Below, piece by piece: positions 20,222 to 35,624 of a DNA stretch of 35,624 nt. This DNA comes from a virus. A program made the translations under genes and the position numbers. Each line of letters opens with the position of its first letter. Positions within the stretch are counted from its first letter, which is position 1. The notes below the pieces were generated by a model, which did not search any database, was not told where the DNA came from, and saw nothing but the letters and a program-made list of their open reading frames with translations. The stretch lies in IMG/VR virus record IMGVR_UViG_3300008970_000004; one strand, written 5' to 3'.

Positions 20222-20709
20222 TAGAAGTCATTATCCTCTTTGAATTTTTGTATTTCCTTCTCAAGTTTCAGCTTCTTTTCCTTAAGAATATGATCTAATG
20301 GTTGGTCCATGAATGGTTCCTTGAGATTTCTACTGTAGTTTTTAAGAAGCTTCCATATAGCTGATTCAGAAGGTGGATACTTCTTGTGAACTCTTTTTTT
20401 CATGATTTTCATCTCATGATTTTCATCTATGACATCGCTCTCTGTAATTTCAGCATCTATCTCCTGATATCCAAAAGCAAGCTTCTCAAGAGTTTGAACT
20501 AAACGTGGAACTAGTAACTGTCCTTTATATTTCCTAGCTTCAAAAATAGTAGATGATAAGATGCCGTATTCTCTCTTGTACTTAATCCATGAGTTTTTGG
20601 AGATCTGCAGACGTGTATAAATATCCTTTTCGGTAGCACCCTCGTAAATTATCCAGTTGCGTATTTCATCAAGTCGAATTCGCACTTGATTCCATTTAGA
20701 GTCTGCCAT
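20221..20709 (-). CDS. HTH DNA-binding protein, first gene after the ORF-free gap (packaging-associated or late regulator)
   Basis: 162 aa. HTH-like GATEKDIYTRLQISKNSWIKYKREYG. RBS AAGGTGA. The stop overlaps the HNH gene start. Confidence 0.6.
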   Translation of the reverse strand: MADSKWNQVRIRLDEIRNWIIYEGATEKDIYTRLQISKNSWIKYKREYGILSSTIFEARKYKGQLLVPRLVQTLEKLAFGYQEIDAEITESDVIDENHEMKIMKKRVHKKYPPSESAIWKLLKNYSRNLKEPFMDQPLDHILKEKKLKLEKEIQKFKEDNDF

Positions 20710-20818
20710 TCTATCACCTTTATTGCTGTTTCATAAGTTCACACATTTCATATGTTTAAACGGTTACCTAAAATTTGTGAAAAAAAATAAATAACCGTCA
20801 TTTTTGCTCTTTATTATT

Positions 20819-20927
20819 GATGATACCTATTTTTTAGGACCTAGACTAATCAATATTTGGGGGAAATATGGATACAGTACCAGAGCAAGGAAACTGTAGC
20901 ACTAAGTCCTAAAAAATAGGTATCATC
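20819..20927 (-). ncRNA. Candidate structured RNA: 22-bp perfect closing stem enclosing two hairpins. The strand is inferred, not shown.
   Basis: gatgatacctattttttaggac (20819..20840) is the exact reverse complement of 20906..20927. Inner hairpins are tacagt/actgta (20873..20878 with 20893..20898, 14-nt loop) and atattt/aaatat (20853..20858 with 20864..20869, 5-nt G5/C5 loop). The region has no ORF of 60 aa or more. Confidence 0.45.
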
Positions 20928-21013
20928 TTACGTCTTTAGGCTACTTAATAAAAATATCTTAGTCAATACCAAAACTTCATGTTGCAAAAAAGGGAATCAT
21001 CCACGTAGTGAGG

Positions 21014-21043
21014 TATAAAAAAAGATAAGCTGTGCTCATCTTT
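21014..21043 (-). terminator. Rho-independent terminator after the PcfJ-like gene
   Basis: The minus strand reads AAAGATGAGC-ACA-GCTTATCTTT (10-bp stem with one G-U pair) followed by TTTTTAT. It starts 11 nt after the TAA at 21055..21057. Confidence 0.7.
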
Positions 21044-21054
21044 AGTTTGTAAAA

Positions 21055-22608
21055 TTATGCTATTGCCATCATGGTTTTATCACTGATCTGATCTGTGTGA
21101 CTGTTGATGTATTCAGTGAAGTATTCAGCAACTTTAGCAGGATCTTGATTGTTTGTACTCCTGCACTGTGTGACTTTGCCATTTCTTATTTCGACTGTAT
21201 AGAATGGTTTGTCGATGTATTTCTTTTTCCTAACGAATAGAACAGCCGTTTCTTTTCTAGCGATTCGATCTACATATTGAAACACACAATGGTTTAATGT
21301 TTTCCCTTCAACGTATAAATCATCTGCGGATTTTGGTGCAATCAATATGTAGTCGTCACCAATTTCCAGCTGTAAATGTTTATTGGACTGCCACACAAGT
21401 TCAAGGAATCTTTTCTTTTCTTCCTCTCGCTTTTTTCTTTCTTCTTCCGCCTTTTCTTTGCGTTTTTGTTCATTAATTCCCTCCAAGTGGAGTTCCCTTG
21501 CTTCTTCTCTATAACGAGGATCTCTTTCATCATCCGGAAGTAACTTCTGCCAATTCATCAACATAACTTTGTATTCTGTTGTTGACCACTTGAACTCCAT
21601 AATGAGTAAAATTTCTTTAAACTCTTCAACCAGATCTTCAGGAAATACATATTTGTCTCTTGATAAATCTAATCCAAGTTTATTGATGTATCCTATGTAA
21701 TACCTGTAGACACTTAGAAATGTTGTTCCAAATACTGTTTGCGTGGATTTTCTACCCTTGATGTACTGAATAAATTTGGTTTTACTAATTTGCGGATGTT
21801 CAGAAAGGAATGGAATCCAAAACTCTTCATAGCCATAATCTACAAACATGAATTCAGGATTTTCAAATCCTTTGGCATGCAACTTAACGATTCTATTATA
21901 ATGATATAGCCCTTTTCCTCGTAAACGAAAGAAATCCTGATGCTGCTTAAATAGTTTTAGATCGATATTATCGTAGCTTGACATCAATTCCGTTGCAAGT
22001 TTTGTATAACCTGACTTGATTAGCATTTCTATTTGCCATAGATGTTCACGTTCAAATCTGTTATTAAACAACGTGTACAAGTTCAAATACTCAAGCTTTG
22101 TAAAATCAAGGTATTTAAACTCTGGGATTTCATAAAGGAATTTCAAATCAATTTCAGATGGTTTGTACTCTTGAGTATAGAACACACCATCGGGATTGCT
22201 CGTTTGACCGTAACCAACTCTTGAATTTGACCAAAATGTTACGCCTGTCGATTTCCATGGCGCTGAATTGTATACATGGCATCCACCATCAATTTTATCG
22301 AATATTGCTAAAACCCGCCAAGCTCTCACGATGTAATATTCTCTGCTATTGAGGATAACGGTTTTTAATTCAAAACGTATATTTCTATCCATACTAGGAA
22401 GCTCTTGCATTAAACGATTAACTTCGCTCATCAGTTCGTCATCGTATTCTTTTCCAAACTTATCCGTATTGAATAAATAGTGCCAGTCTTTTTTGTGTGC
22501 ATAATATAAGTTTCTGTTTTCGCGGTAGAAGTTTTCAAGTCTATCCAGTTGATTTATAGTTAACTGTTTAAAGATACTACGATCAATGTTCAGCAAAGAG
22601 CCCATCAT
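21055..22608 (-). CDS. PcfJ-like protein
   Basis: 517 aa. The C-terminal EGKTLNHCVFQYVDRIARKETAVLFVRKK...PFYTVEIRNGKVTQCRSTNN matches my memory of the PcfJ-like domain. It lies beside a PcfK-like gene. Confidence 0.6.
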   Translation of the reverse strand: MMGSLLNIDRSIFKQLTINQLDRLENFYRENRNLYYAHKKDWHYLFNTDKFGKEYDDELMSEVNRLMQELPSMDRNIRFELKTVILNSREYYIVRAWRVLAIFDKIDGGCHVYNSAPWKSTGVTFWSNSRVGYGQTSNPDGVFYTQEYKPSEIDLKFLYEIPEFKYLDFTKLEYLNLYTLFNNRFEREHLWQIEMLIKSGYTKLATELMSSYDNIDLKLFKQHQDFFRLRGKGLYHYNRIVKLHAKGFENPEFMFVDYGYEEFWIPFLSEHPQISKTKFIQYIKGRKSTQTVFGTTFLSVYRYYIGYINKLGLDLSRDKYVFPEDLVEEFKEILLIMEFKWSTTEYKVMLMNWQKLLPDDERDPRYREEARELHLEGINEQKRKEKAEEERKKREEEKKRFLELVWQSNKHLQLEIGDDYILIAPKSADDLYVEGKTLNHCVFQYVDRIARKETAVLFVRKKKYIDKPFYTVEIRNGKVTQCRSTNNQDPAKVAEYFTEYINSHTDQISDKTMMAIA

Positions 22609-24986: not shown

Positions 24987-25244
24987 TTACTCCTTAACCT
25001 CTTTTGAAATATTTTTTAAATCTTCTTCATTAATGACTCGAAAGCCAATATATTTATCTTTTAGTTTTGTGCGGATTTGGTCCAAACAAGATTCTTCATC
25101 AACACCGATGACATATTTAGGTGAGCTATAAAAAACTGCATCGATTGGATTTTCATCCTCTTTAAATTTAATGATTTGTCCGTTGAATAATGTGATACCT
25201 CTTTTTCTTCCTTTTGCCATGAGTCTATAGTCAACTCGTATCAT
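24987..25244 (-). CDS. Hypothetical protein
   Basis: 85-aa ORF, the first gene after intergenic repeat R1. Confidence 0.55.
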   Translation of the reverse strand: MIRVDYRLMAKGRKRGITLFNGQIIKFKEDENPIDAVFYSSPKYVIGVDEESCLDQIRTKLKDKYIGFRVINEEDLKNISKEVKE

Positions 25245-25441
25245 AATTGCACGCTTTCTGTAGTTTTTCCCACTACTTATTTTTGTGATAGAAAATCTTA
25301 CATAACCGCTAGAACTGTAAGATTTTTTATCTTTTTTAGTTATGCTTACTTTTTAGCGTTATTGCGCTATCAAGTGCGGTTTTCACTCATTTAAATAATA
25401 AAAATAATTTACAGTAACCCAAATTCCCGTTAAATCACTCT
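25245..25441 (-). repeat. Intergenic regulatory repeat R1 (homologous to 28044..28243)
   Basis: Blocks shared with R2: aaatcttacataacc, ctatcaag(t)gcggt, aaaataatttac(a/c)gta, aattcccgttaa, aatcactc. Contains a perfect 11-bp inverted repeat, 25292..25302 with 25316..25326. Confidence 0.7.
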
Positions 25442-27602: not shown

Positions 27603-27613
27603 TTTTTGAGTCT

Positions 27614-27626
27614 CCTTTGCTCTGGA
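27614..27626 (-). repeat. Early-gene leader motif, copy A (TCCAGAGCAAAGG, one extra A)
   Basis: The minus strand reads TAA AAACTATCCAGAGCAAAGGAGACTCAAAAA ATG. It is intergenic and fused to the SD of 27081..27602. Confidence 0.7.
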
Positions 27627-27632
27627 TAGTTT

Positions 27633-28043
27633 TTAATATGTTGAACTTATGAAAATGATATTTGGATCCTTTGTATAAGTGATGCTCCAACCTTGCTTTA
27701 TCCAATTTGATATTGCCAGGTCCTTATGAGTCACACTTCTCAAATCTTGTTTAAAACTGATTGTTTGTTTTGCTTTCACGACTACTGGTAAAAGATTTGA
27801 TGATCCTTGATTATTGATTTTATGATGCAGCGTTCTAGACTGCCATTCCTCACAAAATGATTTACCAGTATTTGCGTGATTCCGAATAACTGCAGCTTGA
27901 TATCCTAAACCCTTGACTGAGATGATCGTGTCATTTTCATCAACTTTGATAGTTGCGAACTTATCTCTACCAAGGTCGATGTAATACTCGTTTTTTAACT
28001 TGTTGAATGATATGAGTTGGAATAATTGGAGCTGTTTTGCCAC
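27633..28043 (-). CDS. Hypothetical protein (GTG start)
   Basis: 136-aa ORF. The GTG at 28043 is preceded by AAGGTG with 7-nt spacing. It is the first gene after repeat R2. Confidence 0.5.
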   Translation of the reverse strand: MAKQLQLFQLISFNKLKNEYYIDLGRDKFATIKVDENDTIISVKGLGYQAAVIRNHANTGKSFCEEWQSRTLHHKINNQGSSNLLPVVVKAKQTISFKQDLRSVTHKDLAISNWIKQGWSITYTKDPNIIFISSTY

Positions 28044-28243
28044 TTGGATACACCTTTTTTCTTTAGTCGATAAATCTTACATAACCCCTAAATCTGTCAA
28101 TTTTTTTGTGTTGCTTTAAATCTTTAAATCGTTCGCACTATCAAGCGGTCAATTGCGTTTTTTTGGTTCTCTACTTTCTAAAATAATTTACCGTAGAGTT
28201 AATTCCCGTTAATTCCGTTAATTTGGTGTGTTTTAATCACTCA
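28044..28243 (-). repeat. Intergenic regulatory repeat R2 (homologous to 25245..25441), with a promoter-like TTGACA
   Basis: The minus strand reads TTGACA (28100..28095), then 15 nt, then TAAGAT. It also has tandem AATTAACGG(G)A and shares blocks with R1. Confidence 0.65.
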
Positions 28244-28641
28244 ATAAATGTGAGCTGAGGTGGAATATCATCAGGTAAATTCCCAGCCCAAACGAAACTG
28301 TTTTGAGTGATGTAGTTGTTATAGTTTGAAACAATGTTGTTTGCTGCAATCTTGGCACTGATAGCATACTGGTACTCGTTACTATCGTTTGCAAAATCTT
28401 TGTATGTATTCCAGGTTTGGTTGTAGGCATTATAGTTCGAAATCATTGCTCTAGCTGTATCTTCAACCATACGTCTGTTTTCATAGTCAATTTCTTGATC
28501 GATTACATCACGTTGAAAGTAAAACTCATTCCACCAGGATCGATACGTTAGATTGAACTTGAACATCAATCCATGAACGATCAATATTAAAACGATAAGT
28601 GAAGCAATGGTGATGAAGATTCCTAAAAATACTTTTTTCAT
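28237..28641 (-). CDS. Membrane-anchored protein (N-terminal TM/signal anchor)
   Basis: The ORF extends to 28662, but the ATG at 28641 (MKKVFLGIFITIASLIVLILIV...) starts 1 nt after the upstream stop and gives a canonical signal-anchor N-terminus. Confidence 0.6.
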   Translation of the reverse strand: MKKVFLGIFITIASLIVLILIVHGLMFKFNLTYRSWWNEFYFQRDVIDQEIDYENRRMVEDTARAMISNYNAYNQTWNTYKDFANDSNEYQYAISAKIAANNIVSNYNNYITQNSFVWAGNLPDDIPPQLTFIE

Positions 28642-28642
28642 T

Positions 28643-29200
28643 TTATTCACCATCTGTTTCAATAATCACAACCGGATTATCAACACTGATAAATAGATCT
28701 GTATAAAGGTAAGTTCCATTCCATTCAATGTACTTTCCATCCACCGTGAAAAAGAATATTCCATCATCGTTAGATCCATAGGTTCCATCAACATCAGGCA
28801 TTTCTTTTTCTATAACTGCACCGTTCGAGTAGTACTCTTGCCACATGTCAGGTGTCAACCATGAGTTAAGACTGGATACTTTACCTAAAACTGTAAACTG
28901 AGCAACCACTGTGTTTCCTGTAAATAGTACGATATAGCCTAATGGAAGCGGTACAGGGCTCTGTAATGCATTTGACTTATCTCTCATACCATTTACCCAA
29001 TAGAGTCTCTTAATGAGGTTATAACGCTCTAAAGAATAATCAATATCAGTTGGTGTTGGTTGGTTTTCTGCCAACTTGTCACCAAGCTTAAATGTTGCTT
29101 CAATGTCTTTATCTGTTGCACTGTCTTCTAAGCAACCACTCAACATGACTAAACTAATAATTAAAACAAAAACTAATAATACTTTTTTCATACTTTTCAC
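28643..29200 (-). CDS. Lipoprotein
   Basis: 185 aa. Signal peptide MKSMKKVLLVFVLIISLVMLSGC with lipobox L-S-G-C. Confidence 0.75.
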   Translation of the reverse strand: MKSMKKVLLVFVLIISLVMLSGCLEDSATDKDIEATFKLGDKLAENQPTPTDIDYSLERYNLIKRLYWVNGMRDKSNALQSPVPLPLGYIVLFTGNTVVAQFTVLGKVSSLNSWLTPDMWQEYYSNGAVIEKEMPDVDGTYGSNDDGIFFFTVDGKYIEWNGTYLYTDLFISVDNPVVIIETDGE

Positions 29201-29289
29201 TGCTCCCTTTTCTTCATCGGTATTCGATGATACTTTTATTATTTGTGTACACCACCAAGATACATTACGGTTTTTATGAATTGGATCCT

Positions 29290-29625
29290 TTAGGAATTGT
29301 TATCAGGTGGATGATTAATCCAGTACGTATAGGCTTCGTAATAGTTGGCTCGAATGCGTACTAATACTTCAAGTCTTTCAGGATCGTCTCCACTTTCTTC
29401 GAGTACCTGAATCTCAGCATCAATCACTTCAATCAATAGGATGACTGCAAGCACATTTTCATCGATGTACTGGTGCAACGTCTCCGGTGTGATTTGTTCA
29501 AGCTCATTGATCTGGTTTTCTAAGTCATTAAGCCTTGCTTCTTTCTTAATGTCTGAAAAACTGTAATATAGTAAGACAATTACTAATACAATAATGATGG
29601 TCAATAAGTAATTCGTTTTTTTCAT
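29290..29625 (-). CDS. Membrane-anchored protein with a coiled-coil segment
   Basis: 111 aa. N-terminal TM YLLTIIIVLVIVLLYYSF. Its start overlaps the recombinase stop by 4 nt. Confidence 0.6.
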   Translation of the reverse strand: MKKTNYLLTIIIVLVIVLLYYSFSDIKKEARLNDLENQINELEQITPETLHQYIDENVLAVILLIEVIDAEIQVLEESGDDPERLEVLVRIRANYYEAYTYWINHPPDNNS

Positions 29626-30305
29626 TGTTTCTCCTTTTGATTTTTATGAACTCCACCCAGATAAGTGGCTGTTCGATCTCGTTCAGCATCTTCTCTTCCC
29701 CACATGACGTACAGCTGAGAAGTCGCTATATCGTCGTGATTATACATTTTGGATAAGGTTTGCCAGGATCCTTTATTTAGGATATACTGGTAACCGAATG
29801 TCTTTCTTAAACTATGCAGTCCGAACGTATAGGCTATTCCTATCGCTTCGGCTGTTTTACTTAATAAGGAATGCCCTTGTTGCCTAGTGATTGGTAAAGA
29901 ATATACCTTTCCATCCTGCATTGTTTTTTGGCCCATGAACATGTAGTCGTATTGAGTCAAATTGTTTCTTGCAACATAATTCATGATGTCCTGGTGAAAA
30001 TCTTTGTTCATCCGGAAGTTTTGCATCTTTCCGGTTTTGTTTTCTTTGATAGACATGTAACCTTTAATAACATCTGTGACTCTAAGTTGAAGGAGATCCT
30101 CAGCTCGAAATGCTGTATTGAATCCAACTAAACAAAGCATCCAGTTACGATCAGCTTGGTACCTTTTAACCTCCGACTTCGCTTGTTCCCTTTTTTTAAG
30201 TAAATAGAACATGAATCTCTCTATTTCTTGAGGATCCTTAATCGGCATCGTTTGATGCTGGCCACCAAAATACTTAATCCTTCTGCCCATGTCTCGTACC
30301 TTCAA
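29622..30305 (-). CDS. Small tyrosine recombinase (phage-integrase-family catalytic domain)
   Basis: 227 aa. Candidate catalytic residues in the canonical order: R in AFRAEDL, K in KTGK, H-x-x-R in LHSLRKTFG, H in YNHDD, Y in ATSQLY. The N-terminal region is only about 60 aa. Confidence 0.75.
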   Translation of the reverse strand: MKVRDMGRRIKYFGGQHQTMPIKDPQEIERFMFYLLKKREQAKSEVKRYQADRNWMLCLVGFNTAFRAEDLLQLRVTDVIKGYMSIKENKTGKMQNFRMNKDFHQDIMNYVARNNLTQYDYMFMGQKTMQDGKVYSLPITRQQGHSLLSKTAEAIGIAYTFGLHSLRKTFGYQYILNKGSWQTLSKMYNHDDIATSQLYVMWGREDAERDRTATYLGGVHKNQKEKQ

Positions 30306-30531
30306 GGTGTCTTAATGCTGCAGTTATATCGTCATTGCACTGTATATCAATCTTGGTTTTATTACTTGGTTCCCAAACGTACTTTTTCCATTCAGGATCA
30401 TAATACATAATGCCCAATGTTTCTCCATCACGATTTTTGACATAAACCACATAGGTCTTTTTTCTACCTGATGGTGGGTAAGATATGAAACTTAATAACT
30501 TGCTTTTAATCGGTAGTAATTGAGTAATCAT
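30274..30531 (-). CDS. Hypothetical protein
   Basis: 85-aa ORF. Its 3' end overlaps the recombinase start region. Confidence 0.5.
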   Translation of the reverse strand: MITQLLPIKSKLLSFISYPPSGRKKTYVVYVKNRDGETLGIMYYDPEWKKYVWEPSNKTKIDIQCNDDITAALRHLEGTRHGQKD

Positions 30532-30605
30532 CTGTTTGTATTCCTTTCATATTTGAGTTTTAAACGATTTGAATAGGTCATTTGTATTCTTACTGCTATA
30601 AAGCG

Positions 30606-30896
30606 TTAAAACTCTATCTCGCGTAAATACTCAATTACTGACATCTCATCTTGAGGTAGTCCTGAAATCACATACTCGTTGTTTTCATCTAGACCAGCAA
30701 GTTTTCTAATTGCTAGAGTTTGATAAATATCAGCGGATAATGGATGATCGCATGTCTTGAGTTGAACCTTTACAAAATCAGTTCCTTTAAGCTGCAGTAA
30801 CCTTAATGGTTCAGCTGCAAACAAAAGTTTCCAATTTTTCGGGTTAGCGAGATAGAGTTTTCTATCGTTTTGATTTATTAATGTTTTTGTCCCCAT
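30606..30896 (-). CDS. Hypothetical protein (96 aa from MGTKTLINQ...)
   Basis: The track ORF (to 30971) begins with TTG and has no SD. The ATG at 30896 is preceded by AGGGAG 7 nt upstream (motif copy B). Confidence 0.55.
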   Translation of the reverse strand: MGTKTLINQNDRKLYLANPKNWKLLFAAEPLRLLQLKGTDFVKVQLKTCDHPLSADIYQTLAIRKLAGLDENNEYVISGLPQDEMSVIEYLREIEF

Positions 30897-31035
30897 GTGG
30901 TTTCTCCCTTGCTCTGGATACTTTCTTTTCATGGCCACACCAGAAACAGTGTAGCTTGTTTTTGTTTTCAATCATGATCTTTAAATCGTAGTGTCCACAT
31001 TTAGGACACTTTTCAGCTTCTTGATTATCAATCAT
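30862..31035 (-). CDS. Small zinc-ribbon protein (57 aa), absent from the ORF track
   Basis: Translated by hand: MIDNQEAEKCPKCGHYDLKIMIENKNKLHCFWCGHEKKVSRAREKPHGDKNINKSKR. It has two CxxC pairs, RBS AAGGTG 7 nt upstream of the ATG, and starts 12 nt after the upstream stop. Confidence 0.6.
   Translation of the reverse strand: MIDNQEAEKCPKCGHYDLKIMIENKNKLHCFWCGHEKKVSRAREKPHGDKNINKSKR
30907..30918 (-). repeat. Early-gene leader motif, copy B (TCCAGAGCAAGG)
   Basis: The minus strand reads GTATCCAGAGCAAGGGAGAAACCAC ATG. It matches copy D at 21 of 22 positions. Confidence 0.75.
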
Positions 31036-31047
31036 TCATGTGCACCT

Positions 31048-31887
31048 TTAATCCTCTTCAGGAAGTAAGCCATTCAGAAGTTTTCTTTCTTCTTGTTCAA
31101 GACGATTTACGAATTGAACAATTTGTTTGGATGCATAATCAGATAATGCGGATAAGTAGGCATTACGTGCAGAATCAACTTTGTCATAATCATTTATCTC
31201 TTTGTGTTGCTCAAGACCTTTAGATGATTCGGCATCAAACACCTTATCCATATAGTGACTATCTGCAGAATCATTTACTAGAAGTGTTGGTTCTAGTTGT
31301 GGATCTGATTTTACAAAGCCTTTTGAAACACCCTGTTCTTCATGGATACGCTGCTCATCTGGATTTGCTGAAGGTGTCATTACTTTAAATTGTGATTCAA
31401 CTCGATGTAACAACGTTAAGTTGACTCCGAATTTGTTCTTATGGTTACCACGAGAGATAATGTACTTCACTTGGTTTACAGTCAGTTTGAGATGCTCAGC
31501 TGCTGATCTGATTGAACTAAATATTCCTTTAATGTCACCTAATGGGTACAAACGATACTCAATAATATAATCAGTCTTTCTTGACTTGGTTTTTGATGTT
31601 GTTTCCACTTTCTTTTCCTCTCTTATCTGTTTTCCTCTTGTGTAGTTCTTTCGACCTAAAGTACTGCTTCCTAGATCATATGTTCCATCCATGAATGCTG
31701 TCCAAATGGTGTCCAAAGTATCTTCAGATTTGTACCATGGCTTTTCCTTGGCCAAGTCATAAAACTCTCTCTTGAGATCACCACGTGGAATCTTTCCATC
31801 TTTTAATGCTTGATGGTAGTAATTTGCAAATTGTTTGATAGGACTGTTCACACCGCGTATCTGTGGCAGTCTTTCCAAAATATCCAT
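31048..31887 (-). CDS. Hypothetical DNA-binding protein (NUMOD-like segment)
   Basis: 279 aa. YIIEYRLYPLGDIKGIFSSIRSAAEHLKLTVNQVKYIISRGN resembles the nuclease-associated modular DNA-binding motif. No nuclease motif was seen. Confidence 0.45.
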   Translation of the reverse strand: MDILERLPQIRGVNSPIKQFANYYHQALKDGKIPRGDLKREFYDLAKEKPWYKSEDTLDTIWTAFMDGTYDLGSSTLGRKNYTRGKQIREEKKVETTSKTKSRKTDYIIEYRLYPLGDIKGIFSSIRSAAEHLKLTVNQVKYIISRGNHKNKFGVNLTLLHRVESQFKVMTPSANPDEQRIHEEQGVSKGFVKSDPQLEPTLLVNDSADSHYMDKVFDAESSKGLEQHKEINDYDKVDSARNAYLSALSDYASKQIVQFVNRLEQEERKLLNGLLPEED

Positions 31888-31899
31888 AATATCAACCTT

Positions 31900-32445
31900 C
31901 TAAAATGGGATTCCATTTAACCTTTCAATTTCATCAATTTGTTCTTTAGATAAATACATGAATGATTGCGGAGCATGTTTGATATTGATATCTGATAGAC
32001 TAACTTCATTCACAAGTTGAAGATCATTGATTCTCCATGCAAACCCAGAATTTATTGTTCCATAGTCTATTAAGTCTTGTTGTGTTAACTTTAAATCTTG
32101 AAGCAAATCATCAGCTATCCACCTGGTTGGCCAAGCCGGATAAAGTGGTTCTATTGTTTCAAGAGTGAATCTAGCTACAATAGATCCTCTTCCTTCAGTG
32201 ATAAGTCTTAAATGCGTATATGGATTAATCTCTTTAAATATTTCATATCCAAACCACTCATCATACTTGTCACCCCATCTATCATCTGTAACATAGCGTT
32301 GAGTGCCGAATGACTCATAAATGTAAACATGGCACGGTAGATTAATCTTTGGGATCTGTTTTCTAGCTTCTGCAATTTTCTTTCCATCAAGGATTAACTT
32401 TGAGTATTTCCTTTTGATTGGAAGCAATATACCATGTGGAATCAT
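31900..32445 (-). CDS. ASCH-domain-like protein
   Basis: 181 aa. The N-terminus LLPIKRKYSKLILDGKKIAEARK resembles the ASCH/PUA-like signature. Confidence 0.45.
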   Translation of the reverse strand: MIPHGILLPIKRKYSKLILDGKKIAEARKQIPKINLPCHVYIYESFGTQRYVTDDRWGDKYDEWFGYEIFKEINPYTHLRLITEGRGSIVARFTLETIEPLYPAWPTRWIADDLLQDLKLTQQDLIDYGTINSGFAWRINDLQLVNEVSLSDINIKHAPQSFMYLSKEQIDEIERLNGIPF

Positions 32446-32957
32446 TTTGTCACCTTGTCTGAAAAGACATTTTCATGTATAATTACTTTGGTTTCTTCCT
32501 TGCTCTGGAATGAAACACTGAACGCATGCGCCTCCCCAGGTTGTGCGTTCTTTTCTTTTTCACTAAAGTATTCATTAATGTATCCAAGTCTTAATGCAAA
32601 GTCTTTAACACGTCTAATGAACCAATCATTCATATCCCGGTAGCCAGCTCTTCTAAAGTTTGCTTTACACATTAATTTCTTTAGTTTCCTTGGAAGTCTT
32701 ACATGAATATGAAAATGAGGATAATCTTCAGGAATATTAAATCTTGTGTTTGGATTCTTTAACAGCTGCAGTTCTTTACGCTCATAAATCTCTAATCGAT
32801 GCATCCCCAACTGCTCTTCAATTGCTATCATGGTTTCCGGTGTTGGCAGTACTTCATAGTTTTCAATAAGAGATAGAATCATAGGACTTACCTGTAGTTC
32901 GTTTGCCAGATCTGTTTGTCTGAAACCTTTTTTCTTTCTAACGTTCCTTAGTTTCAT
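32442..32957 (-). CDS. XRE-family HTH protein with a C-terminal extension
   Basis: 171 aa. HTH: KKGFRQTDLANELQVSPMILSLIENYEVLPT. Confidence 0.65.
   Translation of the reverse strand: MKLRNVRKKKGFRQTDLANELQVSPMILSLIENYEVLPTPETMIAIEEQLGMHRLEIYERKELQLLKNPNTRFNIPEDYPHFHIHVRLPRKLKKLMCKANFRRAGYRDMNDWFIRRVKDFALRLGYINEYFSEKEKNAQPGEAHAFSVSFQSKEETKVIIHENVFSDKVTK
32498..32509 (-). repeat. Early-gene leader motif, copy D (TCCAGAGCAAGG)
   Basis: The minus strand reads CATTCCAGAGCAAGGAAGAAACCAAAG. It lies inside the 3' end of 32442..32957, about 50 nt upstream of the 32445 start. Confidence 0.7.
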
Positions 32958-33295
32958 GACTGGGTACCTCGTTGTTCTAAAAATGAATTCATGCTTGCTA
33001 AATCCGAAAATTTTCTATTGTTGTCTTTACACCAATCTTTATAGAACAAAATAATGTTTGGATCTAATGACCAGTCAATCTTTTCAATTTCTTCTTTATC
33101 CAAACCCATTCTTTCTAAGCGAGACTTCGAACCATCAATGATTGCCTCTTCTTCCTTTGTTTTACATCTGATGGTTGTTTCATTAACTGTTAAGAACCCA
33201 TAATGCAAAATTGCTGAAGTTAGTGCAGCTTTAGCCTCACTTATTACTTCAACAACTTGTTCACTTTCAATTGATACTTTAATTTTCTTTAACAT
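32954..33295 (-). CDS. Hypothetical protein (113 aa from MLKKIKVSIE...)
   Basis: The track ORF (to 33376) overlaps the upstream gene by 56 nt. The ATG at 33295 is preceded by AAGGAG 7 nt upstream (motif copy C). Confidence 0.55.
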   Translation of the reverse strand: MLKKIKVSIESEQVVEVISEAKAALTSAILHYGFLTVNETTIRCKTKEEEAIIDGSKSRLERMGLDKEEIEKIDWSLDPNIILFYKDWCKDNNRKFSDLASMNSFLEQRGTQS

Positions 33296-33304
33296 CGTTT
33301 TTCT

Positions 33305-33316
33305 CCTTGCTCTGGA
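33305..33316 (-). repeat. Early-gene leader motif, copy C (TCCAGAGCAAGG)
   Basis: The minus strand reads TAG CAAATCCAGAGCAAGGAGAAAAACG ATG. It is intergenic and fused to the SD. Confidence 0.75.
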
Positions 33317-33320
33317 TTTG

Positions 33321-33515
33321 CTATTTTCTTTTTTTATTACTTGCCTTCTCATCGATCCTTTTGTCGGTATTGTCATCAGCTGTCACCACATCATCTGATA
33401 ATTCCAGTACTTCCTGATTGTTAAGACCGATTATATTTCTGATAAACCAATCTGCTGCACTTGACAAATCAGGCTCATTTACAGCTTCAACCTTACTAAT
33501 TACTTTTAAATTCAT
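33321..33515 (-). CDS. Small acidic hypothetical protein
   Basis: 64-aa ORF, the second gene of the early operon. Confidence 0.5.
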   Translation of the reverse strand: MNLKVISKVEAVNEPDLSSAADWFIRNIIGLNNQEVLELSDDVVTADDNTDKRIDEKASNKKRK

Positions 33516-33891: not shown

Positions 33892-33918
33892 AATGCTATA
33901 AAGATGAGGTGATTGTAT

Positions 33919-34230
33919 ATGGATATCTACGATAGAATCAGCCAACTATTGATAACTAAAGGGAAAACAAGAAAAGAAATGTGTCAGGATTTAAAAATAC
34001 CTTATAGCACATTGAATTCACTATATCAGCGTAGAACACAAAGGATCAATTTTGACATGATTCAAGATATTGCGAAATATTTGAACAGAACAGTAGAGTA
34101 TTTGGCTTTAGGTATTGAGCATCAAATGTCACCAAAGGATGAGCTTGTAATAATATTCGAATCATTGAACGATTCAGATAAAAAACAACTTATAGAGTTT
34201 GCTAAATACTTAAAAAACAGACAAGGATGA
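33919..34230 (+). CDS. CI-like repressor (short XRE-family HTH, no peptidase domain)
   Basis: 103 aa from the ATG at 33919 (the track uses TTG at 33913). RBS GAGGTGA 6 nt upstream. HTH: KTRKEMCQDLKIPYSTLNSLYQ. It is divergent from cro-like and lies upstream of int. Confidence 0.7.
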   Translation: MDIYDRISQLLITKGKTRKEMCQDLKIPYSTLNSLYQRRTQRINFDMIQDIAKYLNRTVEYLALGIEHQMSPKDELVIIFESLNDSDKKQLIEFAKYLKNRQG

Positions 34231-34236
34231 TTGATT

Positions 34237-35624
34237 ATGAATAAAGCGGTTATATACGCTCGATACTCTTCTGATAAGCAACGTGAAGAATCAATTGAAG
34301 GCCAATTGATGATTTGTCACGACTTCGCTAAAAAAAATAATCTTCAAGTTATTAAAGAGTATATAGATAGAGCAAAAACAGGAACTCGTACAAATAGATC
34401 TGAATTTCAGAGAATGATAATGGATAGTAATACCCAATCTTTTCAATATGTAATTCTATATAAAACTGATAGGTTTGCTAGAAACGAGCATGATTCTATC
34501 GTGAACGAACATTACCTTTTGACCAATGGAGTTCAGTTGATGTATGCGACTCAACCTTTTTTGAATAATAAAGGTGGTAGAATCATTAAAGCAATTTATC
34601 GCGTACAAGATGAAGAATACTCGATAAATCTATCAGAGAGAACAAAGCTTGGTTTAGCTATGAATGTTGAAAATGGGAATGCAATATCTGGTCAATGTCC
34701 TATTGGATATAAAATAGAAAACAAAAAAATGGTCATCGATGCTGAAAAAGCAGATATCCCAAAGTTTATTTTTAATCTTTATGCTGGAGGTATAAAGGCT
34801 ACAGACATCAACATTATGCTGCAAGAAAAGGGCTATAATCCATTTAATATAAATTCAATTAGTAGGATGATCCGAAACAAGAAATATATTGGAACATTAA
34901 CATTTCAGGGCAAGGAGCATCTTAACTATCATCCTCAACTAATAGATAACGAGACATTTGAAAAAGCAAACTCGATGCTTAATAACAAAAGAGCACGTCA
35001 TGGTGGAAGGTCTATAGAGAAGTATTTATTAAGTGGATATTTGTACGATCAAAACGGAAAACGATTTGTCGGTAATAGTGGTAATGGTGAACATGGGAAA
35101 AAATATAGGTATTATTCATTAGGTAAACGCTATATAAAAAAAGACCACATAGAAAAACTTGTGATCGAAACTATAATAAGTACTTTATCTAAATCATCTA
35201 CTGAGTTTGCTCAAGAAATCCATAATAAATTGCTTAATAGTTCTGGAGAATCGAATGCAGATATAGCAAGAAAGAAACTAAATGGAATAAATAAAGATAT
35301 AACCAACTTAATTAATGCTATTAAAACTGGAATAATAAATGATTCAGTGAAAGACGAATTAGATCGTTTGGAAAAATTGAAGTTGCATTTGCAATCAGAA
35401 CTATTAAAACCAGATGTTAGTCAGTTTAGTGTCTCCCAGTTAAGAAAAATGGTTGAACAAATGAAAAAAAAACACCTCACCGAAAGTGATAAGGCATCTT
35501 TAATATCTTCGATGGTTGATAAAATTGTTGTTTTTAAAGATTACGTTGCAATTTATTATCGATTAACCGGACAACCAATATCATTTGATGATATTAGAAG
35601 TTCGGATGAAAAACTCAATGGTGC
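34237..35624 (+). CDS. int: Large serine recombinase (integrase); runs off the window end and continues at 1..181
   Basis: The ATG at 34237 gives MNKAVIYARYSSDKQREESIEGQ... (resolvase-type catalytic Ser motif). Followed by DRFARN and a recombinase-domain ...CPIGYK.... The frame is open to the last base. It is not in the ORF track because no stop falls inside the window. Confidence 0.9.
   Translation, partial: MNKAVIYARYSSDKQREESIEGQLMICHDFAKKNNLQVIKEYIDRAKTGTRTNRSEFQRMIMDSNTQSFQYVILYKTDRFARNEHDSIVNEHYLLTNGVQLMYATQPFLNNKGGRIIKAIYRVQDEEYSINLSERTKLGLAMNVENGNAISGQCPIGYKIENKKMVIDAEKADIPKFIFNLYAGGIKATDINIMLQEKGYNPFNINSISRMIRNKKYIGTLTFQGKEHLNYHPQLIDNETFEKANSMLNNKRARHGGRSIEKYLLSGYLYDQNGKRFVGNSGNGEHGKKYRYYSLGKRYIKKDHIEKLVIETIISTLSKSSTEFAQEIHNKLLNSSGESNADIARKKLNGINKDITNLINAIKTGIINDSVKDELDRLEKLKLHLQSELLKPDVSQFSVSQLRKMVEQMKKKHLTESDKASLISSMVDKIVVFKDYVAIYYRLTGQPISFDDIRSSDEKLNG
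35526..35624. repeat. Terminal direct repeat, copy 2 (identical to 1..99)
   Basis: See copy 1. Confidence 0.95.

Follow-up and report, generated by a model that had tools for sequence, protein, structure and literature searches.

The 35,624-nucleotide window analyzed here (IMG/VR record IMGVR_UViG_3300008970_000004) is the whole stretch of viral DNA under study. It contains a short sequence tag that recurs at early and middle genes of a phage, and the exact antisense of this tag occupies an invariant loop in a conserved structured element at the head of the late operon. There is about an even chance that this loop is a trans-acting anti-Shine-Dalgarno (anti-SD) RNA that silences the tagged gene set by RNA-RNA pairing. 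An invariant loop antisense to a multi-copy, SD-fused tag appears to be accounted for most economically by such pairing.

In the proposed mechanism, the sequence 5'-UCCAGAGC-3', fused to an SD (AAGGAG), would act as an address tag on a small early/middle gene set. Its reader would be the 5' leader RNA of the late operon, expressed from a conserved promoter-like site that follows the early-operon terminator. The loop 5'-UUCCUUGCUCUGGU-3', set in a hairpin within a long stem, would serve as an anti-SD extended by the complement of the tag. Once the leader RNA is made, the loop is predicted to form 11-15 base pairs (bp) with each tagged site, covering the SD of the genes that start at 33295, 30896, and 27602 and also an orphan copy of the tag (copy D). 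Translation initiation would be blocked, possibly with double-strand-specific cleavage, and the tagged genes would be shut off together. Transcription of the leader RNA, its pairing in vivo, and the repressive effect and its timing are predicted from the DNA sequence.

Recurrence and conservation of the tag

Exact copies of TCCAGAGCAAGG occur three times on the minus (coding) strand, at 30907-30918 (copy B), 32498-32509 (copy D), and 33305-33316 (copy C). A fourth minus-strand copy with one mismatch, an extra A, lies at 27615-27626 (copy A). This four-copy recurrence was described in a first-pass annotation of the window, and the placed positions bear it out. Re-reading of the sequence also agrees with the contexts given there: copies A and C are intergenic, copy B lies in the tail of a zinc-ribbon open reading frame (ORF), and copy D lies inside an XRE-type gene. 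Copies B and D agree at 20 of their 22 positions, which corrects the 21 of 22 reported earlier. The full extents of all four copies are listed in Table 1.

Fusion of the tag to the SD, likewise claimed for three copies, is found at A, B, and C, each of which includes a functional SD. In relatives of the phage, a functional SD is included in every copy at site A and at a further site, E. The tag also bears on gene annotation, where it would correct three over-extended ORF starts. The mechanical minus-strand starts at 30971 (TTG; ORF 30606-30971) and 33376 (ATG; ORF 32954-33376) are over-extended, and the proposal to shorten them fits both the SD spacing and a 113-amino-acid (aa) ORF in the relative L027. 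The SD-fused tags and this ORF place the predicted true starts at 30896 and 33295.

The tag is rare by chance. The 11-mer CCAGAGCAAGG is expected at 0.002-0.004 copies per strand (Markov orders 0-3), so the earlier estimate of 0.02 chance occurrences was right as to rarity and conservative as a figure. No other 11-mer has four copies once A/T-rich low-complexity sequences and those double-counted through the duplicated ends of the window are set aside. In a look-everywhere control, an 11-mer with at least five G+C reached at least four copies in 6 of 200 order-3 Markov simulations, equivalent to about p=0.03 from the window alone. This doubt is removed by conservation in relatives, and comparative sequence thereby confirms that the motif is real. 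In a 902-column alignment of the window with L027 (contig L001) at 72% identity, the longest identical runs are the C block (26 nucleotides, nt) and the D block (23 nt), and the next is 17 nt. Orthologous A copies are present in L027, L033, and L041. A motif scan of IMG/VR found more than one copy in one contig only; the 21 single matches are unrelated sequences, at least one group of which is coding.

Site E is located at the start of the PcfK-like gene. It carries the tag in L027, L033, L036, and L047 and lacks it in the window and in L041, though the upstream gene is homologous. This pattern of presence and absence suggests that the tag comes and goes at individual ribosome-binding sites.

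The structured element and its complementary loop

The structured element consists of a 26-bp closing stem around two small hairpins and has a fold of -50.3 kcal/mol (z=-5.9). It is the one strongly structured intergenic element on the gene-sense strand, and it carries UUCCUUGCUCUGGU as the loop of hairpin 1, with about 0.003 chance copies expected per strand. The first-pass annotation had counted a fifth, inverted copy of the motif in a hairpin loop. That copy is present on the plus strand at 20879-20890 as ACCAGAGCAAGG, and it is read here as the antisense of the motif on the transcribed strand rather than as a mere fifth copy. Opening of the loop 1 core costs 3.3 kcal/mol.

The stems are conserved in a set of eight sequences (67-97% identical) that includes window-clade leaders from L023, L024/L041, L027, L033, L036, and L047. 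In this set, 98.8% of stem cells are paired, compared with 36-41% when partners are slid, and seven stem pairs have changes on both sides, a degree of covariation reached in 0 of 500 shuffles. The stem of hairpin 2 covaries too, from AUAUUU/AAAUAU to AUAAAA/UUUUAU in L027. Stems contain 16 G-U cells at nine pairs versus three A-C cells, and this excess favors an RNA read from the minus strand. The loop 1 core CCUUGCUCUGGU and the CCCCC loop of hairpin 2 are unchanged in all eight sequences. As judged from this comparison, the stem structure is real and RNA-like.

The element starts about 10 nt 3' of a promoter-like site, which itself follows the terminator-like hairpin of the early/middle operon. 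Relatives show equivalent GC-rich hairpins with T runs at the end of this operon. The position of the promoter-like site is kept in all relatives; its spacer varies, and the -10 hexamer reads TAGCCT, TAGCAT, TAATTT, or TAGTTT. A consensus promoter scan missed the site. From this arrangement, the element is assigned as the predicted 5' leader of the terS-like/HNH/TerL late operon, and a processed or run-off small RNA may arise from it. In Rfam, no family reaches its gathering score in the window, and a permissive search of 20690-21060 gives generic long-hairpin matches only, which places the putative leader RNA in no curated RNA family.

Complementarity between loop 1 and the tag was scored by a duplex scan of the loop against the whole sense strand, with each relative scanned using its own loop. 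In the window, the top four partners are the four tag copies: C at -25.0, D at -24.6, A at -24.3 (with a 1-nt bulge in the duplex), and B at -24.1 kcal/mol. The next-best partner scores -18.7 kcal/mol, against a background mean of -6.9 (standard deviation 2.8). The same ranking is seen in relatives, with four sites at -27.6 to -23.8 kcal/mol in L027 (next -18.1), two sites at -26.9 and -23.0 in L033 (next -18.8), one site at -22.4 in L036 (next -18.0), and site A at -25.3 in L041 (next -21.8). The variant targets CCAGAGCGAGG, CCAGAGUGAGG, and CCAGAGCGAAGG all still pair as G:U, so that three of three independent substitutions are tolerated versus about one-third by chance. An operator for a small RNA had been among the roles first proposed for the motif, and this part of the proposal gains a candidate RNA whose top-ranked partners in relatives are the tagged sites.

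Hairpin 2 has no comparable partner. Its CCCCC loop shows no outstanding target in the scan, and its best match (-13.5 kcal/mol) is the ribosome-binding site of the gene at 1178 (1171-1200, AAGGGGAAAUAUAUG).

Several simpler properties of the tag were considered and rejected. The loop copy is not a plus-strand ribosome-binding site, as no start codon follows it. Extended complementarity to the 3' tail of 16S rRNA fails because the upstream half of the tag mismatches the textbook Firmicute sequence, which may not be that of the host. A mini-hairpin of 3 bp (UCC/GGA) inside the tag is too weak.

Competing readings of the tag

A sister clade (L037, L043, L044-46, L067, and L074) was found through homologues of the terS-position protein with 56-70% identity. 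It shares synteny, the promoter-like site, and the long stem with the window clade, and it has one hairpin only, with the loop CUUUCCAUCCUUUGC, UUUACUUCCUUUGC, or UUUAAUUCCUUUGC; hairpin 2 is absent. Most sister-clade genomes contain two to three copies of a variant tag, CCGAGCAAAGG, in the form (T/C)CCGAGCAAAGGAA, located at the A and E sites and at one orphan position (Table 1). L043 has degenerate versions only. Most tag copies in the window clade contain GCAAGG and the loop contains CCUUGC, whereas the sister clade has GCAAAGG and CCUUUGC. Paralogous copies have changed in concert between the clades, which argues for a trans-acting reader, and the step from AA to AAA in the tag has its counterpart in UU to UUU in the loop. 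Relatives were also sought in two further scans: a loop-pattern scan of metagenomes recovered one true relative (L033) and six matches in unrelated high-G+C sequence, five of the six from one conserved family, and a contig scan with the IstB-like protein found no relatives.

A number of observations weigh against silencing by the late-leader loop. Neither copy D, which has no start codon at a usable distance, nor the orphan sister-clade copy is a ribosome-binding site. Changes on both sides of the paired core are never seen, and strict compensatory proof of intermolecular pairing is thus lacking. Opening of the targets costs 3.6-7.3 kcal/mol compared with a background mean of 5.4; accessibility is average, and the idea that the target sites are specially accessible was rejected on these costs. 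Among the nearly invariant positions is the T before CCAGAGC, which the pairing does not include. In the sister clade, complementarity of the loop is limited to GCAAAGGA(A), 8-9 nt, with duplexes of -12 to -17 kcal/mol, and the L043 loop pairs poorly with its own degenerate sites (-7 to -9 kcal/mol). The available DNA, including the cognate leader hairpin, yielded no sequence complementary to the 5' half of the sister-clade tag. At the late operon, the -10 hexamer TAGCCT is weak and there is no canonical terminator between the structured element and the first late gene, and the element may be just a 5' untranslated region (UTR) rather than a discrete small RNA.

The sister-clade mismatch may be explained in two ways: the window clade may have gained a longer pairing, or a second reader may also use the 5' half of the tag. 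Conservation of this half without a visible RNA partner makes another reader likely, and the 5' half probably has one. A broader form of the mechanism holds that the tag defines a phage-wide regulon, in which genes gain or lose a 7-8-nt SD-fused tag and a single late-leader RNA loop reads all tagged messages. Temporal shut-off would then proceed without a protein repressor, the tag and loop would co-evolve between clades, and the 5' half of the tag may have its second reader. This broader proposal is tentative and is considered somewhat more doubtful than not.

A protein reader is the alternative that survives best, and it is nonetheless unlikely. The tag would be an operator for a phage or host RNA-binding repressor, activator, or endoribonuclease, in the manner of T4 RegA/RegB, and the complementary loop would be unrelated or a decoy that masks the tag. 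Conservation of the 5' half (TCC(A)GAGC) and of the T before the paired core, in the sister clade despite a loop that cannot pair with that half, is what such a reader would produce, and concerted change among paralogous copies implies a trans-acting reader of some kind. Most early proteins have no known function and could include it. However, a protein would leave unexplained both the exact antisense in the invariant loop of a conserved structure and the wobble-compatible substitutions in the targets. A Pfam scan of 30 window proteins identifies no recognizable domain for RNA binding or ribonuclease activity, and PHROGs gives none for ten of these; most are unannotated, and such a reader may still be among them.

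The same complementarity could also operate with its logic reversed, which is improbable. Tagged early mRNAs would bind the loop and remodel or stabilize the leader, thereby licensing late genes, or the duplex would be a processing site for the leader. The location of the loop within the 5' UTR of the late operon itself, with no terminator before the first late gene, is compatible with this arrangement. Yet the 26-bp stem neither sequesters the late ribosome-binding site nor forms a terminator, so there is no obvious switch, and multiple SD-containing targets fit repression of the targets more simply.

Slightly less probable again is a role for the motif as a double-stranded DNA site for a regulator, packaging factor, or replication factor, with five sites of which one is inverted. 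A DNA site can be read equally in both orientations, the phage encodes a 111-aa double-HTH protein and several HTH regulators, and the inverted copy lies near the promoter-like site and a possible cos region. Nonetheless, the motif is not palindromic, and four of the five copies follow the orientation of transcription and are fused to an SD sequence. The inverted copy falls exactly on the loop of a stem, the G-U pairs of this stem are possible in minus-strand RNA only, and the target variants are of the wobble type.

The least probable reading treats the copies as module-boundary or linker sequences that promote recombination or are left by it, with no regulatory role: this suggestion of the first-pass annotation finds limited support at A, where homology among the window, L027, and L033 starts exactly at ATCCAGAGC with unrelated upstream sequences, and the upstream flank of C is diverged from the relative (11/24 identical) and the tag at E travels with the allele of the downstream gene, but copy D is internal to a gene with homology to the relative on both sides, 12 nt is short for homologous exchange, direct repeats would favor deletions, the start of homology at A fits equally a tag that belongs to a downstream ribosome-binding-site module, and the antisense loop and its invariance are left unexplained.

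The phage and its place among known regulatory systems

The window represents a temperate siphovirus-like phage, complete at about 35.5 kb, and its host is probably a member of the Erysipelotrichaceae. One relative is located in a metagenome-assembled genome labelled Erysipelotrichaceae bacterium UBA6182. The ends of the window overlap (1-99 versus 35526-35624), and k-mers of 2-95 recur at 35527-35620 at an offset of exactly 35525 nt, which indicates a circular assembly of about 35.5 kb and doubles k-mer counts near the ends. The G+C content is 35%, and the minus strand holds nearly all genes. TerL shares at most about 42% identity with that of any deposited phage, and annotated phage records contain no nucleotide match to the early region or the leader.

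The gene map was built from the sequence with Pfam or PHROGs (Table 1). The early/middle region also encodes an IstB-like ATPase, the 111-aa double-HTH protein, and PcfK-like and PcfJ-like proteins, and most early genes have no assigned function. The plus-strand ORF that runs from beside the CI-like gene to the window end may be an integration recombinase. The 222-aa tyrosine-recombinase-like gene among the early genes is separate from this ORF and is kept in relatives.

Table 1. Positions of the tag copies, the late leader, and neighboring features (window coordinates, except for the last three rows)
Feature	Position	Strand	Remarks
CI-like repressor	33913-34230	+	adjoins plus-strand ORF reaching window end
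Cro-like gene	33745-33530	-	
Copy C, TCCAGAGCAAGGAGAAAAACG	33296..33316	-	intergenic; abuts ATG 33295
113-aa gene	start ATG 33295	-	function unassigned; downstream of copy C
HTH_3/XRE gene	32442-32957	-	hosts copy D in 3' end
Copy D, TCCAGAGCAAGGAAGAAACCAA	32488..32509	-	inside 3' end of HTH_3/XRE gene; 43-64 nt before ATG 32445
57-aa zinc-ribbon ORF		-	tail carries copy B
Copy B, TCCAGAGCAAGGGAGAAACCAC	30897..30918	-	tail of 57-aa zinc-ribbon ORF; abuts ATG 30896
96-aa gene	start ATG 30896	-	downstream of copy B
Tyrosine-recombinase-like gene	29622-30290	-	Phage_integrase, 222 aa; among early genes
Copy A, TCCAGAGCAAAGGAGACTCAAAAA	27603..27626	-	one extra A; intergenic; 7 nt before ATG 27602
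173-aa gene	start ATG 27602	-	downstream of copy A
Intrinsic-terminator-like hairpin and T run	21021..21043	-	ends early/middle operon after PcfJ-like gene
Intergenic region, 345 nt			between terminator-like hairpin and terS-position gene
Promoter-like site	20938..20966	-	-35 TTGACT (20966-20961), 17-nt spacer, -10 TAGCCT (20943-20938)
Structured RNA element	20819..20927	-	26-bp closing stem (20927-20902 with 20844-20819) around two small hairpins
Hairpin 1 stem, 5 bp	20897-20893 with 20878-20874	-	ACAGU with ACUGU
Hairpin 1 loop, 14 nt, UUCCUUGCUCUGGU	20879..20892	-	antisense of motif and anti-SD core
Hairpin 2	20853..20869	-	AUAUUU-CCCCC-AAAUAU; C-rich loop invariant
terS-position gene, 162 aa	20221..20709	-	first of late operon; then HNH endonuclease, TerL, structural genes
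Sister-clade tag copies, L037	4335, 8120		
Sister-clade tag copies, L067	2436, 6574, 11798		
Sister-clade tag copies, L074	4387, 9506		

Two further conserved segments flank the leader. A box, CACTACGTG, lies at 21002-21010 on the minus strand, between the early-operon terminator and the late -35 hexamer. It is kept in the window, L027, L033, L036, L043, L046, and L047, reads CATTACGTAG in L037, and may bind an activator of the late promoter. On the 3' side of the structured RNA, the segment ACGGTTATTTATTTTTTTT ... TAACCGT (20760-20798, minus strand) is nearly invariant in both clades, with diverged flanks, and folds as a 12-bp hairpin with a U-rich loop. It may be a cos region rather than an RNA signal, because the HNH and TerL genes adjoin it.

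A promoter-like region of about 145 nt is present twice on the minus strand (25293-25436 and 28072-28215), with aligned blocks of 41 and 36 nt that share about 80% identity. The region includes TTGACAGATTTAGGGGTTATGTAAGATTT and lies ahead of the genes at 25244 and 28043. Copies are also found in relatives, and in L033 one lies directly before the tagged A gene. The repeated region may be a middle promoter with a shared regulator.

The proposed leader RNA has its closest counterpart in the c4 antisense RNA (immI) of phages P1 and P7, a structured phage RNA whose complementary sequences are thought to lie in loops and which blocks translation around an mRNA ribosome-binding site (PMC12197685). 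The candidate would likewise be a phage-encoded structured RNA with a loop complementary to phage ribosome-binding sites. The c4 RNA serves immunity and has a single target mRNA (icd/ant); it lies immediately upstream of this target in the same operon, from which it is co-transcribed and processed. In contrast, the element described here is in a late leader, 6.7-12.4 kb downstream of four sites upstream of different genes, and it has its own promoter-like site in a phage of a Gram-positive host. Other phage RNAs that repress phage genes by base pairing include P22 sar and lambda OOP and aQ (PMC12197685). These are opposite-strand, fully complementary RNAs with a single target, whereas the present candidate is trans-encoded on the strand of its targets and would act on several short sites.

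The C-rich-loop small RNAs of Firmicutes, exemplified by two regulators of Staphylococcus aureus, provide a second comparison. According to two reports (PMC2837412, PMC3961350), RNAIII and RsaA use C/U-rich hairpins that pair with the SD of their targets and arrest translation, and RNAIII also promotes mRNA degradation. The CCCCC loop of hairpin 2 and the anti-SD core UCCUU of loop 1 resemble the hairpins described there. Those RNAs are chromosomal and use short UCCC seeds, whereas here an anti-SD plus 7 nt of tag complement would give 11-15 bp, with the RNA and its targets in one phage.

Post-transcriptional control of phage mRNAs through mRNA decay and inhibition of translation initiation is documented in T4 (PMC3014915), and the likeness to the present case is at this functional level. 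The endoribonuclease RegB cleaves early SD sequences at GGAG, and the operators of the translational repressor RegA lie at ribosome-binding sites. Those readers are proteins, whereas the candidate reader here is an RNA loop. Taken against these systems, the finding is plausibly a variant of phage antisense regulation that differs from c4 in its placement and its several targets. Searches of the open-access literature turned up no account of an anti-SD RNA with multiple targets in the late leader of a phage that infects Gram-positive bacteria.

Repressors, activators, and antiterminators are the usual explanation for how temperate phages of Gram-positive bacteria time their gene expression. The 14-nt loop and the 12-nt tag form a directly testable pair, and their arrangement offers a simple blueprint for the programmable silencing of several genes. 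Close relatives differ in whether a given gene carries the tag, which makes the pair useful also for studying the origin and turnover of base-pairing regulons in viruses. If the proposed silencing is true, this uncultivated Erysipelotrichaceae phage lineage would possess a compact RNA-only mechanism in which one late-leader loop silences a portable, tag-defined set of early genes.

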